Virus record (IMG/VR): IMGVR_UViG_3300025110_000112
Span: 1-26,060 of that record
DNA: 26,060 bases
Reading direction: 5' to 3' (one strand)
Origin: a virus
Lineage: Duplodnaviria > Caudoviricetes
Shown here piece after piece: positions 1,252 to 23,445 of the stretch. The notes beneath the pieces were generated by a model. That model was not told the DNA's origin and did not search any database. It saw only the letters and a list, made by a program, of their open reading frames with translations. Within the stretch, counting starts at the first letter, position 1. Every line of letters starts with the position of its first letter. The position numbers and the translations under genes are program-made.

Positions 1252-2157
1252 ATGGCTATATCAAGATCACAACTAGTTAAAGAACTAGAGCCAGGTTTGA
1301 ATGCACTATTCGGCTTGGAATATAAAAACTATGCAGATGAGCATGCAGAAATTTTCGACGTAGAAAATTCTGACAGAGCTTTTGAAGAAGAAGTGATGTT
1401 ATCTGGTTTCGCAAATGCTTCAGTTAAACCTGAAGGATCAAGCGTTAACTACGATACAGCACAAGAATCTTTCACTGCTAGATACACTCACGAAACGCTT
1501 GCTTTAGCGTTCTCAATCACTGAAGAAGCGATTGAAGATAACTTGTATGATAGACTTGCGTCTAGATATACAAAAGCATTAGCTAGATCAATGGCAAATG
1601 CTAAACAAGTTAAAGCAGCAAATGTATTAAACAATGCATTTGATTCAAGCTTCACAGGTGGTGACGGCGTAGAACTTTGTTCTGCAGTTCACCCAATTGT
1701 GGCTGGAACGTTCAAAAATGAGTTGTCAACTGCAGCTGACCTTAACGAAACTTCGTTAGAGCAAGCTCTTATTGACATCGCAGCAATGACTGATGAAAGA
1801 GGTCTAAAAATTGCAGCAAAAGGAGTTAAAATGATAATTCCTTCAGCGCTTCAATTTACTGCTGAGAGATTAATGAAATCTCAAGGTAGAACTGGAACTG
1901 CAGATAATGATATCAATGCAGTCGGTAGCATGGGAATGATCCCACAAGGTTACGTAGTAAACCACTACTTAACTGATACTGATGCGTTCTTCATTAAGAC
2001 TGATGTTCCTAACGGATTAAAAATGTTCGTTAGAGCACCAATCAAAACTGCAATGGAAGGCGACTTCGAAACTGGAAACGTAAGATACAAAGCTAGAGAG
2101 AGATATTCTTTTGGATTCTCAGACCCTAGAGGTATCTTTGGATCACCAGGAGCATAA
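1252..2157 (+). CDS. Major capsid protein (Mu gpT-like, HK97 fold; 301 aa)
   Basis: SD AGGAG; ITEEAIEDNLY, LNETSLEQA, IIPSALQFTAERL and YKARERYSFGFSDPRGIFGS segments match my recollection of gpT-like capsids of marine phages; followed by a strong hairpin. Confidence 0.9.
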   Translation: MAISRSQLVKELEPGLNALFGLEYKNYADEHAEIFDVENSDRAFEEEVMLSGFANASVKPEGSSVNYDTAQESFTARYTHETLALAFSITEEAIEDNLYDRLASRYTKALARSMANAKQVKAANVLNNAFDSSFTGGDGVELCSAVHPIVAGTFKNELSTAADLNETSLEQALIDIAAMTDERGLKIAAKGVKMIIPSALQFTAERLMKSQGRTGTADNDINAVGSMGMIPQGYVVNHYLTDTDAFFIKTDVPNGLKMFVRAPIKTAMEGDFETGNVRYKARERYSFGFSDPRGIFGSPGA

Positions 2158-2169
2158 TCGTAATAATTT

Positions 2170-2194
2170 TGTGGCCGGACATAGTTCGGCCACA
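2170..2194 (+). terminator. Stem-loop after the capsid gene (terminator or mRNA-stabilising hairpin)
   Basis: TGTGGCCGGAC-ATA-GTTCGGCCACA, 11-bp stem with one G-U pair, 12 nt after the stop; U-tract weak. Confidence 0.65.
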
Positions 2195-2215
2195 TTGTAA
2201 TAAGAAAGTAGAAAT

Positions 2216-2473
2216 ATGAAAAAATTCCTAATAACTATCTGGGCCTATGATCATTATGCAAAATTTCAAGTTTTGTCTGAAGATAATGCCAATTCTCTCG
2301 AACAATCGATCCTTGACAAATTGGGAGAAAAGAGTATAAATTGGGAATATCTTGGTATATCATATGATAACCGAGTAAACAGAATAACCTATGAGGAGGT
2401 TGTTGATGATACAAGACCTATACAAACGAAAAAGGTCCTTGGAGTTGAAGTGGGAACAGGAGCATCTGTCTAA
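2216..2473 (+). CDS. Hypothetical protein (85 aa)
   Basis: ATG after purine-rich AGAAAGTAGAAAT; fills the gap after the hairpin; no recognisable domain. Confidence 0.65.
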   Translation: MKKFLITIWAYDHYAKFQVLSEDNANSLEQSILDKLGEKSINWEYLGISYDNRVNRITYEEVVDDTRPIQTKKVLGVEVGTGASV

Positions 2474-2615
2474 TGGTAGATACACTCTTGAAATGGTCAG
2501 AATCGATGACAAAGTTAAACAAGTCATTACTGACATTAAGCTTGAAGAAGCTAAAATTGCTCACAGACAAAATAGCGTTGAAGGCGCTGCTCCACAAGTT
2601 TCTGTAGCTACTTAA
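2406..2615 (+). CDS. Small helical/coiled-coil hypothetical protein (69 aa; start revised from 2391)
   Basis: GAGGAGG at 2393-2399 lies 6 nt before ATG 2406 (MIQDLYKRKRSLELKWEQEH...); overlaps the upstream ORF by 68 nt. Confidence 0.7.
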   Translation: MIQDLYKRKRSLELKWEQEHLSNGRYTLEMVRIDDKVKQVITDIKLEEAKIAHRQNSVEGAAPQVSVAT

Positions 2616-2662: not shown

Positions 2663-2691
2663 TTGCACTCTACTAAAAACTGTTGTATAAA
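2663..2691 (+). promoter_or_regulatory. Sigma70-type promoter
   Basis: TTGCAC (2663-2668), 17-nt spacer, TATAAA (2686-2691); predicted start about 2697-2698. Confidence 0.7.
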
Positions 2692-2697
2692 AATCAC

Positions 2698-2776
2698 ACT
2701 ATACAAATTAAAATAAGTTAAATGTAGACGCGTATAGTCGACATCCCTAGGGACTACATTTAAGATATCTAGGAGG
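2698..2776 (+). ncRNA. Structured leader RNA with two pseudoknot-type pairings; possibly related to the Mu-gpT-DE RNA motif class
   Basis: Perfect 10-bp stem TTAAATGTAG(2718-2727)/CTACATTTAA(2754-2763). Loop GTATAGT(2732-2738) is complementary to upstream ACTATAC(2698-2704). Loop CCTAG(2746-2750) is complementary to CTAGG(2769-2773), which overlaps SD AGGAGG(2771-2776). Family assignment is unverified. Confidence 0.65.
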
Positions 2777-2784
2777 ATATTAAT

Positions 2785-3291
2785 ATGGCAAATACAACTT
2801 TTACAGGTCCGGTACGATCTGAAAGTACACTTAAAACAATCAGTAAAAACTCTACTACTGGAGCAATTACTGAAGTAATTACTATGGGTGATGCACCAGT
2901 TGCATTAGGAGATGAAGACAAAACTCTTGATAACGCAACACACAGTGGAAGAACTCTTGTAGTTCCTGCACTTGCAGCTAACAGAACAATTACATTACCG
3001 GCACCAGTTGCTGGTGCACACTTTAAATTTATTTATGGTGGCGCTGCGGAAGAAGCAGAAAATTTAATTATAATAACACCGGGAAATACTAATTTCTTTA
3101 TTGGTGGAGTTATTCATTTAGATTCAAATGCTGATAACGTATCTGTTTATTCTGATGGAAACTCTAACTCAAAACTAACTCTTACAGATTTTGGTTTATT
3201 TGAAATAAATATATTAGCTAAAGATTCCACTAACTACTATATTTGGGGTCAAGCAGAAGGCGCAGACGTGCCTGCATTTGCAGATCAGTAA
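2785..3291 (+). CDS. Putative virion structural protein (head fibre/decoration-like, 168 aa)
   Basis: SD AGGAGG; MANTTFTGPVRS N-terminus; RTITLPAPVAGAHFKFI beta-rich domain; in the head module. Confidence 0.7.
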   Translation: MANTTFTGPVRSESTLKTISKNSTTGAITEVITMGDAPVALGDEDKTLDNATHSGRTLVVPALAANRTITLPAPVAGAHFKFIYGGAAEEAENLIIITPGNTNFFIGGVIHLDSNADNVSVYSDGNSNSKLTLTDFGLFEINILAKDSTNYYIWGQAEGADVPAFADQ

Positions 3292-3301
3292 TACATAATT
3301 A

Positions 3302-3328
3302 TGTGGGGCTTCGGCCCCACAGTTTCTT
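3302..3328 (+). terminator. Intrinsic terminator-like hairpin with cUUCGg tetraloop
   Basis: TGTGGGGC-TTCG-GCCCCACA (3302-3321), perfect 8-bp stem, followed by GTTTCTT. Confidence 0.75.
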
Positions 3329-5819: not shown

Positions 5820-8800
5820 ATGGCATCAAGTTATTCAGATCTAGGTATTGAACTAATGGCAACCGGCGAAAATGCCGGTACATGGGGGGATAAAACTAAT
5901 ACCAACTTACAAATTGTAGAAAAAGCAATCGCTGGTTATGTAGAAAAATCTATTGCTGGCGGTGCAGCAACAACAGCTTTATCAATTACAGACGGTGATA
6001 CTACTGAGTCAACATCTGTTGCAAGACACGCAGTTATAAAACTAACAGGAACTATTACAGGTAATCAAATTGTAACTGTTCCAGACTCAATTGAAAAAGT
6101 TTACATTGTGGTAAATGGTACAAGTGGTGCCTACACTGTACAATTTAAAACTGCATCAGGAACAGGTATAACTTTTGGTACAACTGATAAAGCAGCTAGA
6201 TTATTATTTTCAGATGGAACAAACATTGTTGATACAGGATTTTCAACTTCTGTTGCTGCTGACGATATTTCTACAGGTGATGCCGCAGTTACACTTGCAA
6301 CGTCTAGCGGTGATATAACTGTAGATGGGCCATCAGATATTATTTTAGACGCTGATGGTGGAGATATATTTTTTAAAGATGGTGGCACAACATTTGGTAG
6401 TGCTACAAACACATCAGGAAATTTAATAATTAAATCAGGTACAACTACTGCTGTAACTTTTAGTGGTGCTAACGCAACAGTTGCTGGAAACTTGTCTGTT
6501 GGTGGAGACTTCGATGTTACAGGAAGTCTTGATTTCAGTGATGCTAATATTACAAACGTTGGATCAATAGCTCTTGATACAATTACAAATGATGGCACAG
6601 ACATTACTTTAGACTCATCAGGAGACATAGTTTTAGATGCAGATGGAGCTAATATAACTTTAAAAGATGGTGGCACAACTGTCATTGATTTTGTATTAAA
6701 CGGATCAACAGATGTAACTTTAGATGCACCAGGAGATATTAAATTTGATGCTGATGGTGGTGATTTTAATTTTTTAGATGGTGGCACAGAAATTTTAAGA
6801 ATATCTAATTCATCTAGTGATGTAATTATTAAGCCAATTGTTGATGCTAAAGATTTAATATTTCAACAAAGAGATGGAACAGAAGTTGCAAGAATTGAAG
6901 ACAACGGTACTTTCAATGTTGTAACAAGTAAACTAGCTATAAATGGTACAGCAATTACATCAACAGCAGCTGAACTTAATATTTTAGATGGTGTTACATC
7001 TACAGCGGCGGAACTTAATATTTTAGATGGTGTTACATCAACAGCAGCTGAATTAAATATTTTAGATGGTGTTACATCTACAGCAGCTGAATTAAATATT
7101 TTAGATGGTGTTACATCTACAGCAGCGGAATTAAATTTAGTTGATGGAATTACAGCAGGAACAGTGTCTGCCTCAAAAGCAGTTATTGTAGATTCTAATA
7201 AAGATTTAACAGGTTTTAGAAATTTAACAATATCAGGAGATCTTACAGTATCTGGTGATGACATTACCATGGGTACAAACACTGCAGGTAATTTATTAAT
7301 TGCAGATGGTACAAACTTTAATTCAGTAGCAGTAGGTTCACTATCAGAAATATCTACAGTTGCTGATGATGATGTATTTTTAGCAGTAGATACTTCAGGT
7401 GGTGGACTTAAAAAAATTGCAAGATCATCAATAGTTTCAGGGCTTGCTACATCTTCTGCATTATCAAATGTTGCAGATGATAGCACACCTCAATTAGGTG
7501 GCAATCTTGATATGAATGGTAACGATATTGTTACTACATCAAATGCAGATTTAGAATTAGCCCCTAATGGTACAGGGCATGTAACTGTTAGAGGTAATAC
7601 AAATTCAGGTGCTATACAATTTAATTGTGAATCTAATTCACATGGCCAACAAATAAAGGCACAGCCACATTCTGCAGGTGTTACAAATGTTATGTTATTA
7701 CCAGATGGTGCTGATTCAACTTTAGTATCTCTTGTAGCTACACAGACTTTAACAAATAAAACATTAACAACACCAGTTATTGCAGAAATAGATTCTGGTT
7801 CTACTATTACACTTGATGCAACTACGGACATTGTTCTTGATGCAGATGGTGGAGATATATTTTTTAAAGATGCAGGAACAACTTTTGGTAGTGCCACAAA
7901 TAATAGTGGAGAACTTCTTATAAAATCAGGTACTACAACTGCTATGACATTTAGTGGTGCTAATGTAACACTAGAAGGTAACTTAACTGTATCGGGAACA
8001 ACAACTACTGTAAACTCAACAACTGTAAATCTAAATGACCACAATATTGTATTAGATAGTGGTAATAGCACAGGTGCAGTTGTTAATGGTGCAGGTATTA
8101 CGATAGAGGGTGGTAGCGGTGATGATGCTACGTTTACCTATAATACAACAGGTCCTAAGTTTGAATTAAAACTAGGTTCAAGCCATGAAGATTTACAGGT
8201 TGATCAACTTATTGCAGGATCACTAGATATTTCAGGAAACGTAGATGTAGATGGAACTTTAGAAACAGATGCTTTATCAATAGCTAGTACAACAGTAACA
8301 TCAACAGCAGCTGAATTAAATATATTAGATGGAGTAACATCAACAACAGCAGAATTAAATATATTAGATGGTGTAACATCAACAGCAGCAGAGCTTAATA
8401 TATTAGATGGTGTAACATCAACAGCGGCTGAATTAAATATATTAGATGGAGTAACATCAACAACAGCAGAATTAAATATATTAGATGGTGTAACATCAAC
8501 AGCAGCAGAGCTTAATATATTAGATGGTGTAACTGCAACAGCAGCAGAGATTAATTTAATAGATGGTGGAACTGCAAGAGGAACTACAGCAGTTGCAGAT
8601 GGTGACGGTATTCTTCACAATGACGGTGGCACAATGAGAATGACTAGTGCCGCTACGTTTAAAACATATTTTCAAGCAGGTATTTCTTCAGCAGCAGATG
8701 ACATAACAGCTGGTGATGCAGCGGTAAATATCACAACCTCATCAGGTAATATTACAATCGATGCAGCTGCTAATGATACCGATATTATATTTAAAGGTAC

Positions 8801-9350
8801 TGATAATAGTTCTGACATTACTATGCTTACTCTTGATGGTAGTGATGCTGGAACAGCTATATTTAATCATGATATTAAACTAGCTGATAATAACAAAGCT
8901 ATCTTTGGTGATAGTGGTGATTTAGAAATTTATCATGAGGGTAGTCATTCTTTTATAGATGATACTGGAACTGGTAGACTTTATCTAAGAGGTAATGATG
9001 GAGTTTACATTCAAAGATATACTGGCGAAGATATGATAAAAGCCATCGCTAATGGTGCAGTTAATCTTTATTATGATAACAGTATAAAATTAGCAACAAC
9101 ATCTGGTGGTGTTGATGTAACTGGTAGCATATTACCTGCTGCTGATGATACACATGATCTTGGTTCTTCATCTAAACAATGGAGAGATATATACACTGGG
9201 GATATAAATTTAAATAATACTAAAACAAGAGATAATGAAGTTGATGGAACAAGAGGTTCATGGACTATTCAAGAGGGTTCAAACGACTTGTTCTTACTAA
9301 ACAGACTTAACAATAAAAAATATAAATTTAAATTAGAGGAGATAAGCTAA
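5820..9350 (+). CDS. Tail fibre protein (1176 aa)
   Basis: Thr/Gly/Ser/Asp-rich; N-terminal anchor GENAGTWGDKTNTNL; TSTAAELNILDGV repeats; repeated I-x-LDADGGD modules; C-terminal DLGSSSKQWRDIYTGD...GSWTIQEG block typical of marine phage fibres. Confidence 0.85.
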   Translation: MASSYSDLGIELMATGENAGTWGDKTNTNLQIVEKAIAGYVEKSIAGGAATTALSITDGDTTESTSVARHAVIKLTGTITGNQIVTVPDSIEKVYIVVNGTSGAYTVQFKTASGTGITFGTTDKAARLLFSDGTNIVDTGFSTSVAADDISTGDAAVTLATSSGDITVDGPSDIILDADGGDIFFKDGGTTFGSATNTSGNLIIKSGTTTAVTFSGANATVAGNLSVGGDFDVTGSLDFSDANITNVGSIALDTITNDGTDITLDSSGDIVLDADGANITLKDGGTTVIDFVLNGSTDVTLDAPGDIKFDADGGDFNFLDGGTEILRISNSSSDVIIKPIVDAKDLIFQQRDGTEVARIEDNGTFNVVTSKLAINGTAITSTAAELNILDGVTSTAAELNILDGVTSTAAELNILDGVTSTAAELNILDGVTSTAAELNLVDGITAGTVSASKAVIVDSNKDLTGFRNLTISGDLTVSGDDITMGTNTAGNLLIADGTNFNSVAVGSLSEISTVADDDVFLAVDTSGGGLKKIARSSIVSGLATSSALSNVADDSTPQLGGNLDMNGNDIVTTSNADLELAPNGTGHVTVRGNTNSGAIQFNCESNSHGQQIKAQPHSAGVTNVMLLPDGADSTLVSLVATQTLTNKTLTTPVIAEIDSGSTITLDATTDIVLDADGGDIFFKDAGTTFGSATNNSGELLIKSGTTTAMTFSGANVTLEGNLTVSGTTTTVNSTTVNLNDHNIVLDSGNSTGAVVNGAGITIEGGSGDDATFTYNTTGPKFELKLGSSHEDLQVDQLIAGSLDISGNVDVDGTLETDALSIASTTVTSTAAELNILDGVTSTTAELNILDGVTSTAAELNILDGVTSTAAELNILDGVTSTTAELNILDGVTSTAAELNILDGVTATAAEINLIDGGTARGTTAVADGDGILHNDGGTMRMTSAATFKTYFQAGISSAADDITAGDAAVNITTSSGNITIDAAANDTDIIFKGTDNSSDITMLTLDGSDAGTAIFNHDIKLADNNKAIFGDSGDLEIYHEGSHSFIDDTGTGRLYLRGNDGVYIQRYTGEDMIKAIANGAVNLYYDNSIKLATTSGGVDVTGSILPAADDTHDLGSSSKQWRDIYTGDINLNNTKTRDNEVDGTRGSWTIQEGSNDLFLLNRLNNKKYKFKLEEIS
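6957..7151 (+). repeat. Tandem 39-bp coding repeat, 5 copies (TSTAAELNILDGV)
   Basis: Directly visible; the last copy is diverged (ELNLVDGI). Confidence 0.95.
8298..8570 (+). repeat. Tandem 39-bp coding repeat, 7 copies, containing a 117-bp higher-order duplication
   Basis: Units 1-3 (8298-8414) and 4-6 (8415-8531) differ by one synonymous base; the seventh unit is diverged. Confidence 0.95.
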
Positions 9351-19800: not shown

Positions 19801-20740
19801 ACTTGCATCACCATTTATATCAGAAGCAATTTATACTGAAGCAATGTTAGATTTAATTGCAAGAGGTGGTAAAACTAGAGAAGGTAGACAAATTTACACT
19901 GAAGCACAAATGGAAAATGAACCAGGAACTGCAATTAAAAACATGATTGAACACTTAGGAAAATCTATGTTACCTTTTTCTTACCCACAACTTACAAGAT
20001 TGTATCAAGCAGCAGCTGACAAACCATCAGAGCGTGGAGAGTTTTTTGAATTACCAGATGAGTTAACAGGATTTTTAGGGTACAGACAAGTTAAGATAGA
20101 TCCTGTTAGATCTATGGGTTTTAAAATTTCTGATTATCAAAGAGGTAACAGGGAAGCAAGAGCATTATTTACTGGAGGATCTGAGTCACTATTAAAAGGT
20201 GGACCTAAAACAGGAAGAGATGTTATTGAAAGATTTATTGTAGCTAACAAAGCTAAATTTAATAATGATAAACAAATGCGTTCAAATATTCAAGCTGCAG
20301 ATATTTTGGGTACAGACATGGACGCTATTAGAACTGAGTTTAGAGAAAGACAATTAATTAATTTATATAATAGATTAGACAATGATATCTATACACCATT
20401 CTTTCCATCAGAAAACATACAAAGAGAATTTAGACAAATTGAAGAACGTATTGGTGTAGATAATCCATTTGAAGAAGTAAGAGATGTGTTAATTGAAATA
20501 CAAGACGATTTAAGAGATTTATCTTTTGACGATGAATTTGATATTAATATAGATGAATATTTACCACCTATTGATGACTTGTCACAAGCACCACTGCCAC
20601 CAACACCAAACGTAGACCCAACAATGATACAACCGGTGCAACAAGCATCGTTAACACAGACAGGCTTAACACCATCAGAACAGGCATTGCTAAGTCCTGA
20701 AGAACAGGCTATAAGGTTAAGACAAAGGGGAATGGCATAA
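16874..20740 (+). CDS. Large internal virion/ejection protein (1288 aa)
   Basis: SD AGGAG; large, mostly helical; position analogous to the largest podovirus core protein; no catalytic motif recognised. Confidence 0.7.
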   Translation: MVEIIDPEGFTSLRDEEINSERSAITSALAGVASGVIKVPEGVISLGAELIDLGFDTDLAADVEQMFDKINIFEDIADDTAIGRLTEGLVQIGVPGGIGFKLASKAIKAKKAGNYMNIKGTNLQKAAKKADDFNKTIGKKRFAAGVAGGAAGEAFVADVEELGTFGDVFEAGPTDLEEVTDEGGREDAFKKLMNRTKFGAESLLITPIVYGVGKGIKAAALRGKNIEFSNSKLDKFFNKTFSALRARGAKPQSIFEAKMAEKGATMADTNRAMELVKTIDSEVDSMFPMVKSVLDKSSDKRKADIYKELNDILFEGELSKAIPSSAAARTHKFLKDNGATDESIENIFEAIGGAREKFVDLINASSNAPKDVQTLKTLMGKRVKDYLGSTYRIFEDKSVLPFLAYTPTEEAIKGTKEYFKRYAKENGKNLTDFQAQSMVDAVIKSAKNQKAPPGLPIKFAKGTLAEEGPQIDKFFKRVVTDDIKPERLLAETPGKDRAVIKKLFGEIEDPRFSIYNSMTKLSNIARKNELFENIAKQDDAIKKAATATTPGGSRGFFFDDALEAAEALPNQEIVELDRYMTPYFKDEFTVNPLAGKFTTKAIAEGLGDSTKTLKFLFEPREGATGIEKGLTWGYRNLVLFPKAASQVAKTILSPQTHFRNLFSATAFSAGNGILFENPALVGRAFRDAFGKLQVGTRSAEANEAYRELLELGVVNSQVQLGDIKNLLTDTRMGENLNIGKPLESMMKKLTSGTGRKLKSGMKFAEDLYTAEDDLFKIANYAVEMQRLRGAYTKAGIKFTERQLKEEAADIVRNTVPNYAYVSDTVRALRRLPLGTFMSFPSEILRTTTNIAKRSIKEIQNPALRSIGLKRLAGMTTVLAAAPYGIQKGFQGLYNVTNEELRALKQFLPEWSKNSTILPIRDEETGELKYIDFSHGNAYDTAIRPFQTLLNNIQQGIENEDVLMKGIMTGMAEAAGELASPFISEAIYTEAMLDLIARGGKTREGRQIYTEAQMENEPGTAIKNMIEHLGKSMLPFSYPQLTRLYQAAADKPSERGEFFELPDELTGFLGYRQVKIDPVRSMGFKISDYQRGNREARALFTGGSESLLKGGPKTGRDVIERFIVANKAKFNNDKQMRSNIQAADILGTDMDAIRTEFRERQLINLYNRLDNDIYTPFFPSENIQREFRQIEERIGVDNPFEEVRDVLIEIQDDLRDLSFDDEFDINIDEYLPPIDDLSQAPLPPTPNVDPTMIQPVQQASLTQTGLTPSEQALLSPEEQAIRLRQRGMA

Positions 20741-23445
20741 TGTCTAGTGAAGATTTTAAATCATTAATAGTAACCGATCCAGATTTAATTGATGAAGGTA
20801 TTGATGTATCTAATTTAAGAACACAAACAGATACAAATCCAAGATTACTAGGTGCTATTGAAGACTATCCAGGCATATCATATGATCCTACATCATACAG
20901 TTATCTTTCTGATCTTAACAGATTATTTGCATCTGGTTTACCAATAATAGACACATCACAACCTACAACACCAGCACCACCAAGTGGTGGCGAAGGAGGT
21001 GGAGGCACGCCTCCAGCAACAGGCGGCACACCAACACCTGATAATAATGCAGGTTTTGATCCAGGTGTAACTCCAGGTCCTTCTGGGTTTATAGGTCTAG
21101 ATCCAGAATATGATGTAAGTCCTTTTGAATATGATGATGCTCAAACTTATGAACCACCAGCATCACCTTCAACATCTGATCCTTTTTTAGCATCAGGCGC
21201 AGCAGGTGGCGCAAGGCTTCCCTCAACATCTCCACAAGAAGGTTTTTTAGCTTCAGGCGCAGCAGGTGGAGCAAATCTTCCAACCGAACCTCAAGAAGGT
21301 TTTTTAGCTTCAGGAGCGGCTGGAGGCGCAAATCTTCCAACACCAACTTATGCAAACACAGGTGACCCAAATTTATTAGATTTAGCTGGAGGAGAAGCTG
21401 GAGGAGCTGATGGATTTGGAATTATAGAAGATGTAGTAACAGAAGAAGATCTAGCAGATAACACAAGTCTATTAGAAAAATTAGGTCTTCCTGCAAACTT
21501 TGATATTAAAAAAGCAGCCATAGAAGCTGGTATAAATTTAGTAGCTGGTGTTCCAATAACTTTAATTGCAAAAGCATTAGAAGCAATATTACCTGACAGA
21601 GATCCAAGACAAAATGCATTAGATGAATTTTATACTACTGGAGAAGGTGCACAATATATGAATCCAAGTAGTCCAAACTATATACCAGGTATGGAAAACT
21701 ATAACACTGTATCAGGTAATCCTTTAGATCCTACATTTGGATTACAGGAAGCATATCAAGATAGAATTGATACAATAGAAAATACATTAGCAAATAAATA
21801 TGGCATGACTGCTGCTGAAATAGCAGATGTTAAAGCAGGTAGCTACACAGGTGATGTAGACAGTGACTTATTAGACAGATTAGTTGATCTTGAAGATGCT
21901 AAGAAAAAAGAACAAGATATATTAGGTATAACAGAAGGAGTAAAAACTGGTATAAAAGCGGCAGATGATGACAAAGGTAGTGATATGTTAACGACTACAC
22001 CAACAGGAGTCAATCCTTTTGCAAATATAGACACAGGAGTTGGAGAGTTTGACACTACACCAGTAACAGGCGTCACGCAACCAGGGACTATAGTTTCAGA
22101 TATATTTGATACTTTTCCACCAGATTACATTGGCCCCAATGTTACTGATGCAGAATTATATGGTGATGTTGACACTACACCAGATTTAGAGTTTGAAAAT
22201 ATTTATGAAGATGTAGATAGATTTGAAGAACCTGCACCAATGACTTTAGCTGATGATAAATTAAACAAAATGACAGACGATGTAGATTTAGATGATTTTG
22301 AATCTTTAGTTACACCAATTGAACCACCAGAACTACCTGATGAAACAGTAACAGGAATTAAAGGACCACCTTCTGAAATATCAGAACTACCTGATGAAAC
22401 AGTAACAGGAATTAAAGGACCACCTTCTGAAATATCAGAACTACCTGATGAAACAGTAACAGGAATTAAAGGACCACCTTCTGAAATATCAGACGATGTA
22501 GATTTAGATGAATTTGATACGGTTGGCTCTAATAGTTCACAACCGACAACAACAGAACTTAAAGATTCTGATTTTACAGCTCAAGACAAAAAAGATATTT
22601 TTGACAGAGAAAGAGAACTTGAAAATCAATACATGGAAGAAACGGGACAAGTCCCTAGAGAAGATCAGTTTTTAGGACAAGCTATAGATGAAATAGTAGC
22701 TAAAAAAACAACCACTTCAACATCTGTAACACCATTAGAAGATGACTTTGAATCTTTAGTTGAACCAACAGAATCACAGGTGACGGAAGGAGGCGATGAA
22801 GCAGGTACAGACGATAGCTCTAATAAAACCACAGACGCTTCTGGAACTGAGGGAGAAGATCAGGATAGATTTGAGGATGACGCAGATGAGTTTAGTGATG
22901 AAGAATTTATGGCTGGTGACACAAGTACAGCAGCTCCTACTACAGGTGATAGCGGTTCAGATAGTTTTTTCGATGCTGTAGATACAGCAGCTGAAACTGC
23001 TTCTTATAGTAACCAAGATTCATATGAATCTGCAGCATATGATGCACCTTCAAAACCTGCAACTAAAAAAGATTATGGACCTTACAGCAGCGGTGGCGGC
23101 GATGGCGGTAACGGTGGTGGTGGCGGCGGCAAAAGTATAGTTTGCACAGCTATGTATCAAACAACAGGATTAGAGGATTGGTCTAAAGCTATGAAGATTT
23201 GGTATATATATCAAAAAAAATATTTAACTATACAGCATCAAGAAGGATATCATAAATTATTTAAACCTTTTGTAAAAGCTATGCACAAAAGTAATATTGT
23301 AAAAGCCATAGGTGCACATTTTGCAAAACATAGAACACAGCATTTAAAACATGTAATGTTTAATAGTAAACCTTCATTGCTAGGTAAAATATATAATAAA
23401 ATACTAGAACCACTTTGTTATTGGGTAGGTAAAAATGCCAGGTAA
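20740..23445 (+). CDS. Acidic low-complexity protein with internal repeats and a basic Cys-initiated C-terminal domain (901 aa)
   Basis: TAATG-coupled; Asp/Glu/Thr/Pro-rich; poly-Gly linker then KSIVCTAMY...LCYWVGK. Confidence 0.75.
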   Translation: MSSEDFKSLIVTDPDLIDEGIDVSNLRTQTDTNPRLLGAIEDYPGISYDPTSYSYLSDLNRLFASGLPIIDTSQPTTPAPPSGGEGGGGTPPATGGTPTPDNNAGFDPGVTPGPSGFIGLDPEYDVSPFEYDDAQTYEPPASPSTSDPFLASGAAGGARLPSTSPQEGFLASGAAGGANLPTEPQEGFLASGAAGGANLPTPTYANTGDPNLLDLAGGEAGGADGFGIIEDVVTEEDLADNTSLLEKLGLPANFDIKKAAIEAGINLVAGVPITLIAKALEAILPDRDPRQNALDEFYTTGEGAQYMNPSSPNYIPGMENYNTVSGNPLDPTFGLQEAYQDRIDTIENTLANKYGMTAAEIADVKAGSYTGDVDSDLLDRLVDLEDAKKKEQDILGITEGVKTGIKAADDDKGSDMLTTTPTGVNPFANIDTGVGEFDTTPVTGVTQPGTIVSDIFDTFPPDYIGPNVTDAELYGDVDTTPDLEFENIYEDVDRFEEPAPMTLADDKLNKMTDDVDLDDFESLVTPIEPPELPDETVTGIKGPPSEISELPDETVTGIKGPPSEISELPDETVTGIKGPPSEISDDVDLDEFDTVGSNSSQPTTTELKDSDFTAQDKKDIFDRERELENQYMEETGQVPREDQFLGQAIDEIVAKKTTTSTSVTPLEDDFESLVEPTESQVTEGGDEAGTDDSSNKTTDASGTEGEDQDRFEDDADEFSDEEFMAGDTSTAAPTTGDSGSDSFFDAVDTAAETASYSNQDSYESAAYDAPSKPATKKDYGPYSSGGGDGGNGGGGGGKSIVCTAMYQTTGLEDWSKAMKIWYIYQKKYLTIQHQEGYHKLFKPFVKAMHKSNIVKAIGAHFAKHRTQHLKHVMFNSKPSLLGKIYNKILEPLCYWVGKNAR
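21184..21339 (+). repeat. Three degenerate coding repeats FLASGAAGGA(R/N)LP
   Basis: Copies start at 21184, 21244 and 21301. Confidence 0.9.
22328..22489 (+). repeat. Three exact 54-bp tandem repeats (ELPDETVTGIKGPPSEIS)
   Basis: Identical units 22328-22381, 22382-22435, 22436-22489. Confidence 0.97.

Follow-up and report, generated by a model that had tools for sequence, protein, structure and literature searches.

In riboswitches of the preQ1 and SAM-II/V types a loop pairs with the Shine-Dalgarno (SD) region, and a constant core combined with interchangeable coverage of the start region is typical of riboswitches. Flaviviral xrRNAs have a three-way junction and two knots, of which one involves the 5′ end and the other a 3′ segment. 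Precedents that involve a protein are the translational autoregulation reported for the P22 scaffolding protein and the leaders of ribosomal protein S15, which are described as diverse in architecture (PMC5100602). The closest described RNA is Mu-gpT-DE (Rfam RF03012), a 53-nt element that Rfam files as an sRNA and that lies downstream of a Mu gpT-like capsid gene and ends at the next start codon; according to the entries consulted, its ZWD structure has 11 pairs and that of Rfam nine, to which CaCoFold adds two covarying pairs. The motif presumably stems from Weinberg et al. 2017; "gpT" does not occur in the main text of that paper, and in the literature searched the name Mu-gpT-DE was met in one work only. 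Neither the name nor four core words were present in the supplements of PMC10690425 covered by the search (three files lay outside it), and our literature search found no phage three-way-junction operator.

The stretch of DNA analyzed here (the window; 26,060 nt of the Caudoviricetes record IMGVR_UViG_3300025110_000112) carries a structured leader in the same slot, with small ORFs between it and the capsid gene (Table 1). An initial annotation had described this leader as having its own promoter, a long stem, two pseudoknot pairings, three junction GACs, a sequestered SD, and two alternative hairpins, and a check of the sequence located all of these segments, both hairpins included, where it had placed them. 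By comparing homologous loci, we assign an orphan Rfam motif to a larger family, which has a common ring-paired core and three or more architectures, and place the element in cultured phages (HTVC023P, HTVC027P, CRP-901/902, and DSL-LC04), which makes its function testable. The leader is widespread and occurs in abundant aquatic phages.

Table 1. Positions of the leader, its predicted signals, and the neighboring features in the window
Feature	Positions	Strand	Remarks
Major capsid gene	1252..2157	+	Mu-like gpT domain, PF10124 above cut-off
11-bp hairpin	2170-2194	+	after capsid stop, no U tract, z −5.5
Two overlapping small ORFs	2216-2473 (85 aa), 2391-2615 (74 aa)	+	second is PHROG 36395
-35-like hexamer TTGCAC	2663..2668	+	predicted promoter; sequence match
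-10-like hexamer TATAAA	2686..2691	+	spacer 17; predicted +1 at A2698
Pseudoknot A 5′ strand ACTATAC	2698..2704	+	predicted first transcript bases
Helix P1 5′ arm	2718..2727	+	last base is G of GAC1, pairs with C of GAC3
GAC1	2727..2729	+	C2729 pairs with G2740; A2728 unpaired
Loop L2	2730..2739	+	closing pair G2730-C2739; pseudoknot A strand GTATAGT at 2732-2738
GAC2	2740..2742	+	C2742 pairs with G2752
Loop L3	2743..2751	+	holds pseudoknot B strand CCTAG at 2746-2750
GAC3	2752..2754	+	sequence plus triplet counts across loci
Helix P1 3′ arm	2754..2763	+	covariation; G-T vs. A-C asymmetry
Pseudoknot B 3′ strand CTAGG	2769..2773	+	covers AGG of the SD
Shine-Dalgarno AGGAGG	2771..2776	+	8 nt 5′ of ATG; first three bases inside pseudoknot B
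168-aa gene	2785..3291	+	conserved N-terminal anchor peptide and variable beta-sandwich knob
Terminator-like hairpin	3302..3321	+	closes a likely one-gene transcript; downstream drop at the HTVC027P counterpart

Comparative support for the fold

Loci were collected with three protein queries (80 each) and one DNA pattern (120), together with 14 of 22 annotated phage matches. The start motif M-x-x-T-T-F-x-G occurred 331 times in 330 of the 376 sequences; 320 occurrences had ≥ 120 nt upstream, and 250 were distinct. After removal of the window's own copy, the parser assigned 194 loci, many of them close kin, to the window-like type A and left 55 as other. Two partner-blind scans, with only the GACs and part of loop L2 fixed, contributed 120 loci each (114 and 117 complete), and 119 cellular-genome matches to a pattern with a loop one base shorter were used as a chance control, which says nothing on absence from cells. 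A control with swapped loops and shuffled flanks was dropped, the cores being near-palindromic (L2 reached five pairs with downstream sequence in 128 of 194 loci), and was replaced by a cross-subtype matrix and the partner-blind scans.

Judged by this comparison, the three GACs form a ring of mutual pairs (G1-C3, C1-G2, and C2-G3, numbered by triplet), leaving three lone A's at a three-way junction, an arrangement that the initial annotation had missed. In a sequence-only, structure-blind alignment of 31 loci hand-picked for diversity, 92.1% of 403 cells were paired, 11 of 13 pairs changed on both sides, and covariation was 0.84 vs. 0.235 when shuffled and ≤ 0.163 in slid registers. All 10 P1 pairs varied on both strands, with G1-C3 being GC in 23 loci, AU in four, GU and UA in one each, and unpaired in two. 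Among 101 folded loci of the first partner-blind set, 49 have a mismatch (C.T, A.G, C.A, and others) directly after G1-C3 (L499, L500, L506, L515, etc.), so that their G1-C3 arm also starts with a lone pair.

Triplet counts lean toward the model, as the locus parser favored GAC and ring pairs; with this bias, GAC/GAC/GAC was retained, as the initial annotation had expected of homologues, in 177 of the 194 type A loci, followed by AAC/GAC/GAT (six), the mismatched TAC/GAC/GAT (four), TAC/GAC/GAA (three), and GAC/GAT/AAC, AAC/GAT/AAT, GAC/GAC/GAT, and TCC/GAT/AAA (one each). C2 was changed to T in three loci and G3 to A in three, at least two of these being joint changes (GAT..AAC, GAT..AAA, GAT..AAT), and one set read GAC..GAT. 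The junction A's were kept in 193, 194, and 194 of 194 loci and the C of GAC1 was invariant, while the L2 closing pair was formed in all 113 distinct motif-anchored loci (GC 82, TA 23, AT 6, CG 2).

Both pseudoknots were rebuilt together with their partners. For pseudoknot A, with nine core types, an exact complement of the locus' own core was present upstream in 185 of 186 loci, the count being confined to 10-nt loops (8 of 194 excluded), and the core of another subtype fitted only 4.5%; in much of the 127-locus TATAG subtype this pairing exists by construction, as the DNA pattern required the window's 5′ pairing. Pseudoknot B, with 15 core types, had a partner in 190 of 194 loci, compared with 5.2% across subtypes (either of two registers accepted). 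In the partner-blind scans, the upstream partner of pseudoknot A was found in 106/114 and 116/117 loci (vs. 2/119 chance matches), P1 with at least six of eight pairs in 104/114 and 107/117 (vs. 11/119), and a 5-bp downstream partner in 71/114 (101 at 4 bp) and 116/117 (vs. 19/119), while P1 and the upstream partner occurred together in none of the 119 chance matches. These counts and the 31-locus covariation bear out the earlier view that P1, the two pseudoknots, and the three junction GACs form a real structured leader.

The 791 P1 cells of 113 motif-anchored loci comprised 722 Watson-Crick, 60 G-T, 2 A-C, and 7 other combinations, and the prevalence of G-T over A-C favors an RNA of the + strand. 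The element could instead act in DNA, as a mark for recombination or for a bound protein beside a hypervariable gene, since it adjoins a gene swapped among at least 11 clusters; we give this reading hardly any credence, because the G-T asymmetry and the tracking of the SD and start codon by the pairing indicate an mRNA. Taken as a whole, the comparison supports the predicted helices and ring pairs, the strand of the RNA, and a fixed position before one gene class.

Tests on the single sequence were less telling for folding, as nested folding of the window's leader alone stayed within chance (z −0.79 and −1.02) and is uninformative. A type A model recognized a single copy in the window (75 bits), the next match being one of 26 bits at the capsid ribosome-binding site. 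No Rfam family matched at gathering in the whole window or at E up to 10 in positions 2150-2900. Contigs from four RNA-library runs cover the leader, at a level that is not informative on start, strand, or amount. From three scans, the number of stored viral stretches that carry the core patterns is estimated at about 3,900, 5,000, and 2,600, and the RF03012 model covered none of the scan-pattern loci in the cases tried.

Mu-gpT-DE and the three architectures

The initial annotation had pointed to Mu-gpT-DE as a possible identity of the leader. The slot and the core are indeed the same: the RF03012 consensus contains the same three GACs, the Rfam structure includes G1-C3 and C1-G2, and the model scored above gathering in 5 of 20 loci tested, where it ends at the start codon (ATG) of a homologue of the 168-aa gene, and likewise in Roseobacter phage CRP-902 (72 bits). 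Identity, however, fails, as the window did not match RF03012 either at gathering (49 bits) or at E up to 10. P1 is short and contains the SD in RF03012, whereas in the window it is 10 bp long and stops 7 nt short of the SD; the second arm is a hairpin in the former and consists of 2 bp plus the pseudoknot to the 5′ end in the latter; L3 pairs with the start codon in the RF03012 form and with the SD in the window; and the RF03012 consensus line shows no C2-G3 and no pseudoknot. On these sequence features, the leader is a variant of the Mu-gpT-DE family and not a member of it, i.e., a more elaborate, unlisted form.

In type A, L3 pairs with the SD or next to it. Type B (the RF03012 form; 39 loci) has the SD in P1 and L3 at the start codon, the pairing being GCCA/TGGC in 30 loci, CCCA/TGGG in four, and imperfect in five; CCCA occurs where the gene starts with ATGGG (4 loci), and the drawing of Weinberg 2017 may already hold some of the type B pairs. 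Hybrids with the type A 5′ knot and start-codon pairing made up 35 of the 101 folded loci of the first partner-blind scan. Type C, a minimal architecture, was recognized by eye in nine loci (L312, L322, L323, L326, L336, L341, L350, L360, and L373) upstream of a 151-aa gene; GAC3 is at or near the ATG there, P1 takes in the start codon, and loop L3 holds the SD. Rfam gave no match to it in three loci tried. Three further loci had no evident L3 partner. Since the type A model sees type B weakly (1/9 type B loci, E 0.045), it is the shared slot and core and the hybrids, not the model score, that argue for kinship of A and B. A quick tree of the capsid (122 rows, 150 columns) calls for at least 11 changes among the three types, and its well-supported branches force three, four, and two changes per type; recombination could be the source of the changes.

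Planktothrix phage Pag-Yong1 (L086 3430-3507) has no three-GAC core; by eye, a stem CCGGGG/CCCCGG is seen there, with a loop (CCGTCT) that might base-pair with AGACGG at the SD of the minor capsid gene. This stem is possibly a degenerate or convergent leader.

The filing of RF03012 as an sRNA, the compact double pseudoknot, and the near-invariant junction bases would suit a catalytic or trans-acting small RNA (a self-cleaving processing site, a packaging RNA, or a structural RNA). We judge this very improbable, as the 3′ pairing enters the SD or the start codon, no terminator stands before the gene, and no curated ribozyme model matches.

Pairing over the SD, initially described as its sequestration, is found in most type A loci and is not general: pseudoknot B overlaps the SD by 3 nt in 148 of 194 loci, by 1–2 nt in seven, and by 0 nt in 39. 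Where the SD lies outside the pseudoknot, blocking is uncertain; in the first partner-blind set the downstream partner ends 11–20 nt before the ATG. An SD that is free just 3′ of the knot in those 39 loci, and in a loop in type C, could also belong to a fold that recruits or parks ribosomes (an enhancer or entrapment site) for the supply of many copies of the downstream product, a reading that is quite improbable given that the start codon itself is paired, with compensation, in type B and in the 35 hybrids.

Of the two alternative hairpins, proposed as competing folds, TCC-CTAG-GGA within the loop had three pairs in only 9 of 127 loci, and ATATCT-AGGA-GGATAT around the SD was present in 34 of 127. 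With competing folds this rare, no conserved two-state switch is seen. The SD hairpin is worth about −3.1 kcal/mol in the window and may compete in the window's lineage only. For the 5′ translational switch suggested by the initial annotation, no conserved alternative fold was thus found among these loci; its other part, a leader tied to the downstream virion gene, stood.

The downstream gene, the promoter, and the phage

The capsid protein of the window is 75–80% identical to those of the pelagiphages HTVC023P and HTVC027P and of phage 023Pt_psg01, and the order of capsid gene, two small ORFs, and next gene is that of HTVC027P gp59-gp62. By this identity and gene order, the window comes from an HTVC023P-type phage, with SAR11 as its likely host. 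In the annotated phages, the element was found by eye in 7 of 14, and the seven without it have capsids ≤ 64% identical. By locus comparison, the hairpin and two small ORFs behind the capsid gene (2170..2615) are a lineage-specific insert, mainly of window-type loci and outside the element; the capsid-to-ATG distance exceeds 250 nt in 22/25 window-type vs. 0/33 type B loci. A promoter-like site lies within the small-ORF region (2313-2342). In HTVC027P, the gene after the capsid gene is listed at 0.13–0.33 of capsid mRNA at 6–15 hpi (PMC12753301 Table S3). Elsewhere in the window, positions 5820-9350 encode a 1176-aa fibre-like protein with two 13-residue repeat arrays (AAELNILDGVTST) and a duplicated domain, and positions 20740-23445 a 901-aa protein that is acidic and of low complexity, contains a 17-residue repeat in three copies, and has an IVCTAM-like segment at its C terminus.

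The 168-aa protein matched no Pfam family and no named Atlas cluster, and tblastn gave no match in the phage collection; 2,350 homologues were recovered among 2,509 candidates, and the 120 homologues listed carried no family or functional name. Its structure model (pLDDT 79.9; Foldseek top match E 3.5e−5) has a knob resembling that of the Pa223 capsid spike gp52 (Z 10.4, rmsd 2.2, 97 aligned, 16% identity), a match that ties in Z with three tail proteins (tailspike and baseplate domains). The layout of N-terminal anchor and C-terminal knob is common to both proteins, whereas the beta-helix middle domain of gp52 is missing from the 168-aa protein. Genes in the same slot are annotated as cement protein (DSL-LC04) and minor capsid protein (Pag-Yong1). 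The modeled fold makes the product likely a capsid spike or decoration protein, and a trimer if the fold matches are followed. For the Pa223 spike, a trimeric state is reported, with attachment to the three-fold axes of the capsid by the N-terminal 41 residues alone (10.1101/2025.06.11.659172).

A three-GAC junction might then mimic the three-fold vertex of the capsid, capture three spike anchor arms, and stop synthesis. We consider this unlikely. If true, such mimicry would be a case of RNA copying a protein surface, occurring in the most abundant known SAR11 phage group, with a feedback switch that is modular and independent of the swapped knob.

When the first 15 residues were removed, 209 downstream proteins fell into 11 clusters, all of which are preceded by the window's RNA subtype, so that only the anchor is shared. 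A gene-blind scan placed the fold before an anchor-peptide gene in 114/114 readable cases (of 120 matches, three were chance and three incomplete), and in the partner-blind scans the strict anchor motif followed in 100/101 and 99/106 loci, the other eight being seven recognizable variants and one unclear start. Across three gene-blind scans, the leader was thus found upstream only of anchor-peptide structural genes and of no metabolic gene. Anchor-peptide genes without the RNA are that of Pag-Yong1 and a second tandem gene in L229, where the leader stands on the first gene only and the second (start near 2070) lies behind a plain hairpin.

The restriction to one structural gene class disfavors the metabolite-responsive version of the switch that the initial annotation had entertained. 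In a metabolite or ion riboswitch, a small ligand at the three-A junction would lock the pseudoknot over the initiation region, which would fit the constant core, the interchangeable coverage of the initiation region, and its conserved pairing; glutamine riboswitches are described in marine phages (PMC9004378). We nevertheless find it improbable: besides never preceding a metabolic gene, the element matches no riboswitch family at E up to 10, and alternative folds occur in just the 9 and 34 of 127 loci given above, though a pseudoknot switch can do without a second fold. The leader would define a new riboswitch class if a small molecule binds it.

The promoter proposed for the leader was traced through its spacing. 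A −10-like hexamer lies 7 nt before the pseudoknot A core in 149 of 175 type A loci (6–8 nt in 162), a set drawn mostly from one lineage, with the spacing recurring in other subtypes, and the best −35 begins with TTG in 145/175. The loose −10 test had a high background (100/185 at a shifted position) and the spacing peak was used instead; the strict promoter scan does not list the leader promoter, whose −10 is without the last T. A promoter at +1 in type B was weak (12/34 at 6–7 nt) and is not claimed. From the hexamer spacing, the leader probably has its own promoter with a start at A2698, a claim that holds for most type A loci and is not universal, the promoter being missing in 9/15 CCTAG-type loci. 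Infection RNA-seq of HTVC027P lists the leader-bearing gp62 as a late gene (PMC12753301); according to Table S3 of that work, its mRNA reaches 2.4–3.7 times that of upstream gp60 and 3–4 times that of downstream gp63 at 6–15 hpi, just 0.8–1.6 times that of the short adjacent gp61, and 1.23 times capsid mRNA at 9 hpi vs. 0.38 at 15 hpi. The profile fits a separate or more stable gp62 transcript, as the presence of a promoter would have it, and maps no start; the ratio at 9 hpi suggests that the gp62 message is made ahead of docking sites.

These data also bear on a ligand-free structural element, a self-folding knot that shields the 5′ end and sets low or delayed translation, with the GACs serving for packing. 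In most type A loci the predicted +1 coincides with the first base of the 5′ strand of pseudoknot A, the HTVC027P mRNA with the leader exceeds those of gp60 and gp63, the ring pairs tolerate swaps, no conserved second fold was found, and the protein is acidic, all of which would fit. Against it, transcripts of the nine CCTAG-type loci without a promoter would come by readthrough from the capsid gene, near-invariant junction bases would be a costly way to obtain a fixed rate, and the short helices of types B and C look marginal without a partner. We regard such a ligand-free damper or 5′ shield as possible, if somewhat doubtful; it comes close behind the spike-stabilised brake set out below, and a metabolite riboswitch is less likely.

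A proposed translational brake and its precedents

The reading that we tentatively prefer, at rather less than even confidence, is that the leader is a translational brake on the predicted spike gene, likely stabilised by unassembled spike. A host-type promoter would start the mRNA at 2698, so that its first bases close pseudoknot A; the junction would then fold and L3 would pair with the SD or just ahead of it, in competition with loading of the 30S subunit, the competing duplexes being of the same order (−4.7 vs. −8.6 kcal/mol as free duplexes). In this scheme, trimers of unassembled spike, which have only the N-terminal anchor peptide in common, would stabilise the folded leader and stop their own synthesis; the shut-off would be lifted as capsids soak up spike. 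We prefer a brake with the spike as partner because the core is constant while pairing of the initiation region has been rebuilt in three ways, and because the anchor peptide is the one part of the gene with which the RNA goes together. If the spike binds the leader, a new case of assembly feedback would be added to those of tailed phages.

Several points count against this brake. The 168-aa protein is acidic (pI 4.47; 9 K+R vs. 19 D+E) and residues 1–25 carry a net charge of +1 or +2 in 228 of 249 proteins, which would make the spike a poor RNA binder; in addition, the SD lies wholly outside pseudoknot B in 39 of 194 loci, no conserved alternative fold was found, and anchor-peptide genes without the RNA exist. 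Strict three-fold symmetry is not required either, since 16 of 194 type A loci have G1-C3 swapped or broken, and this weakens the argument from the trimer.

Among known RNAs, the preQ1 and SAM-II/V riboswitches and xrRNA differ from the element in that Rfam gives no match to it and no metabolic gene is present here, and we know of no ring of three GACs in any of them. The operators of S15 (rpsO) and the P22 scaffolding protein do not match the element in sequence or by model either. Their proteins are proven or implicated regulators, S15 being a natural RNA binder, whereas the normal partner of the spike would be the capsid protein. They are alike in that a structured leader is tied to one assembly protein, and the S15 leaders share with the present one the use of several architectures for one job (PMC5100602).
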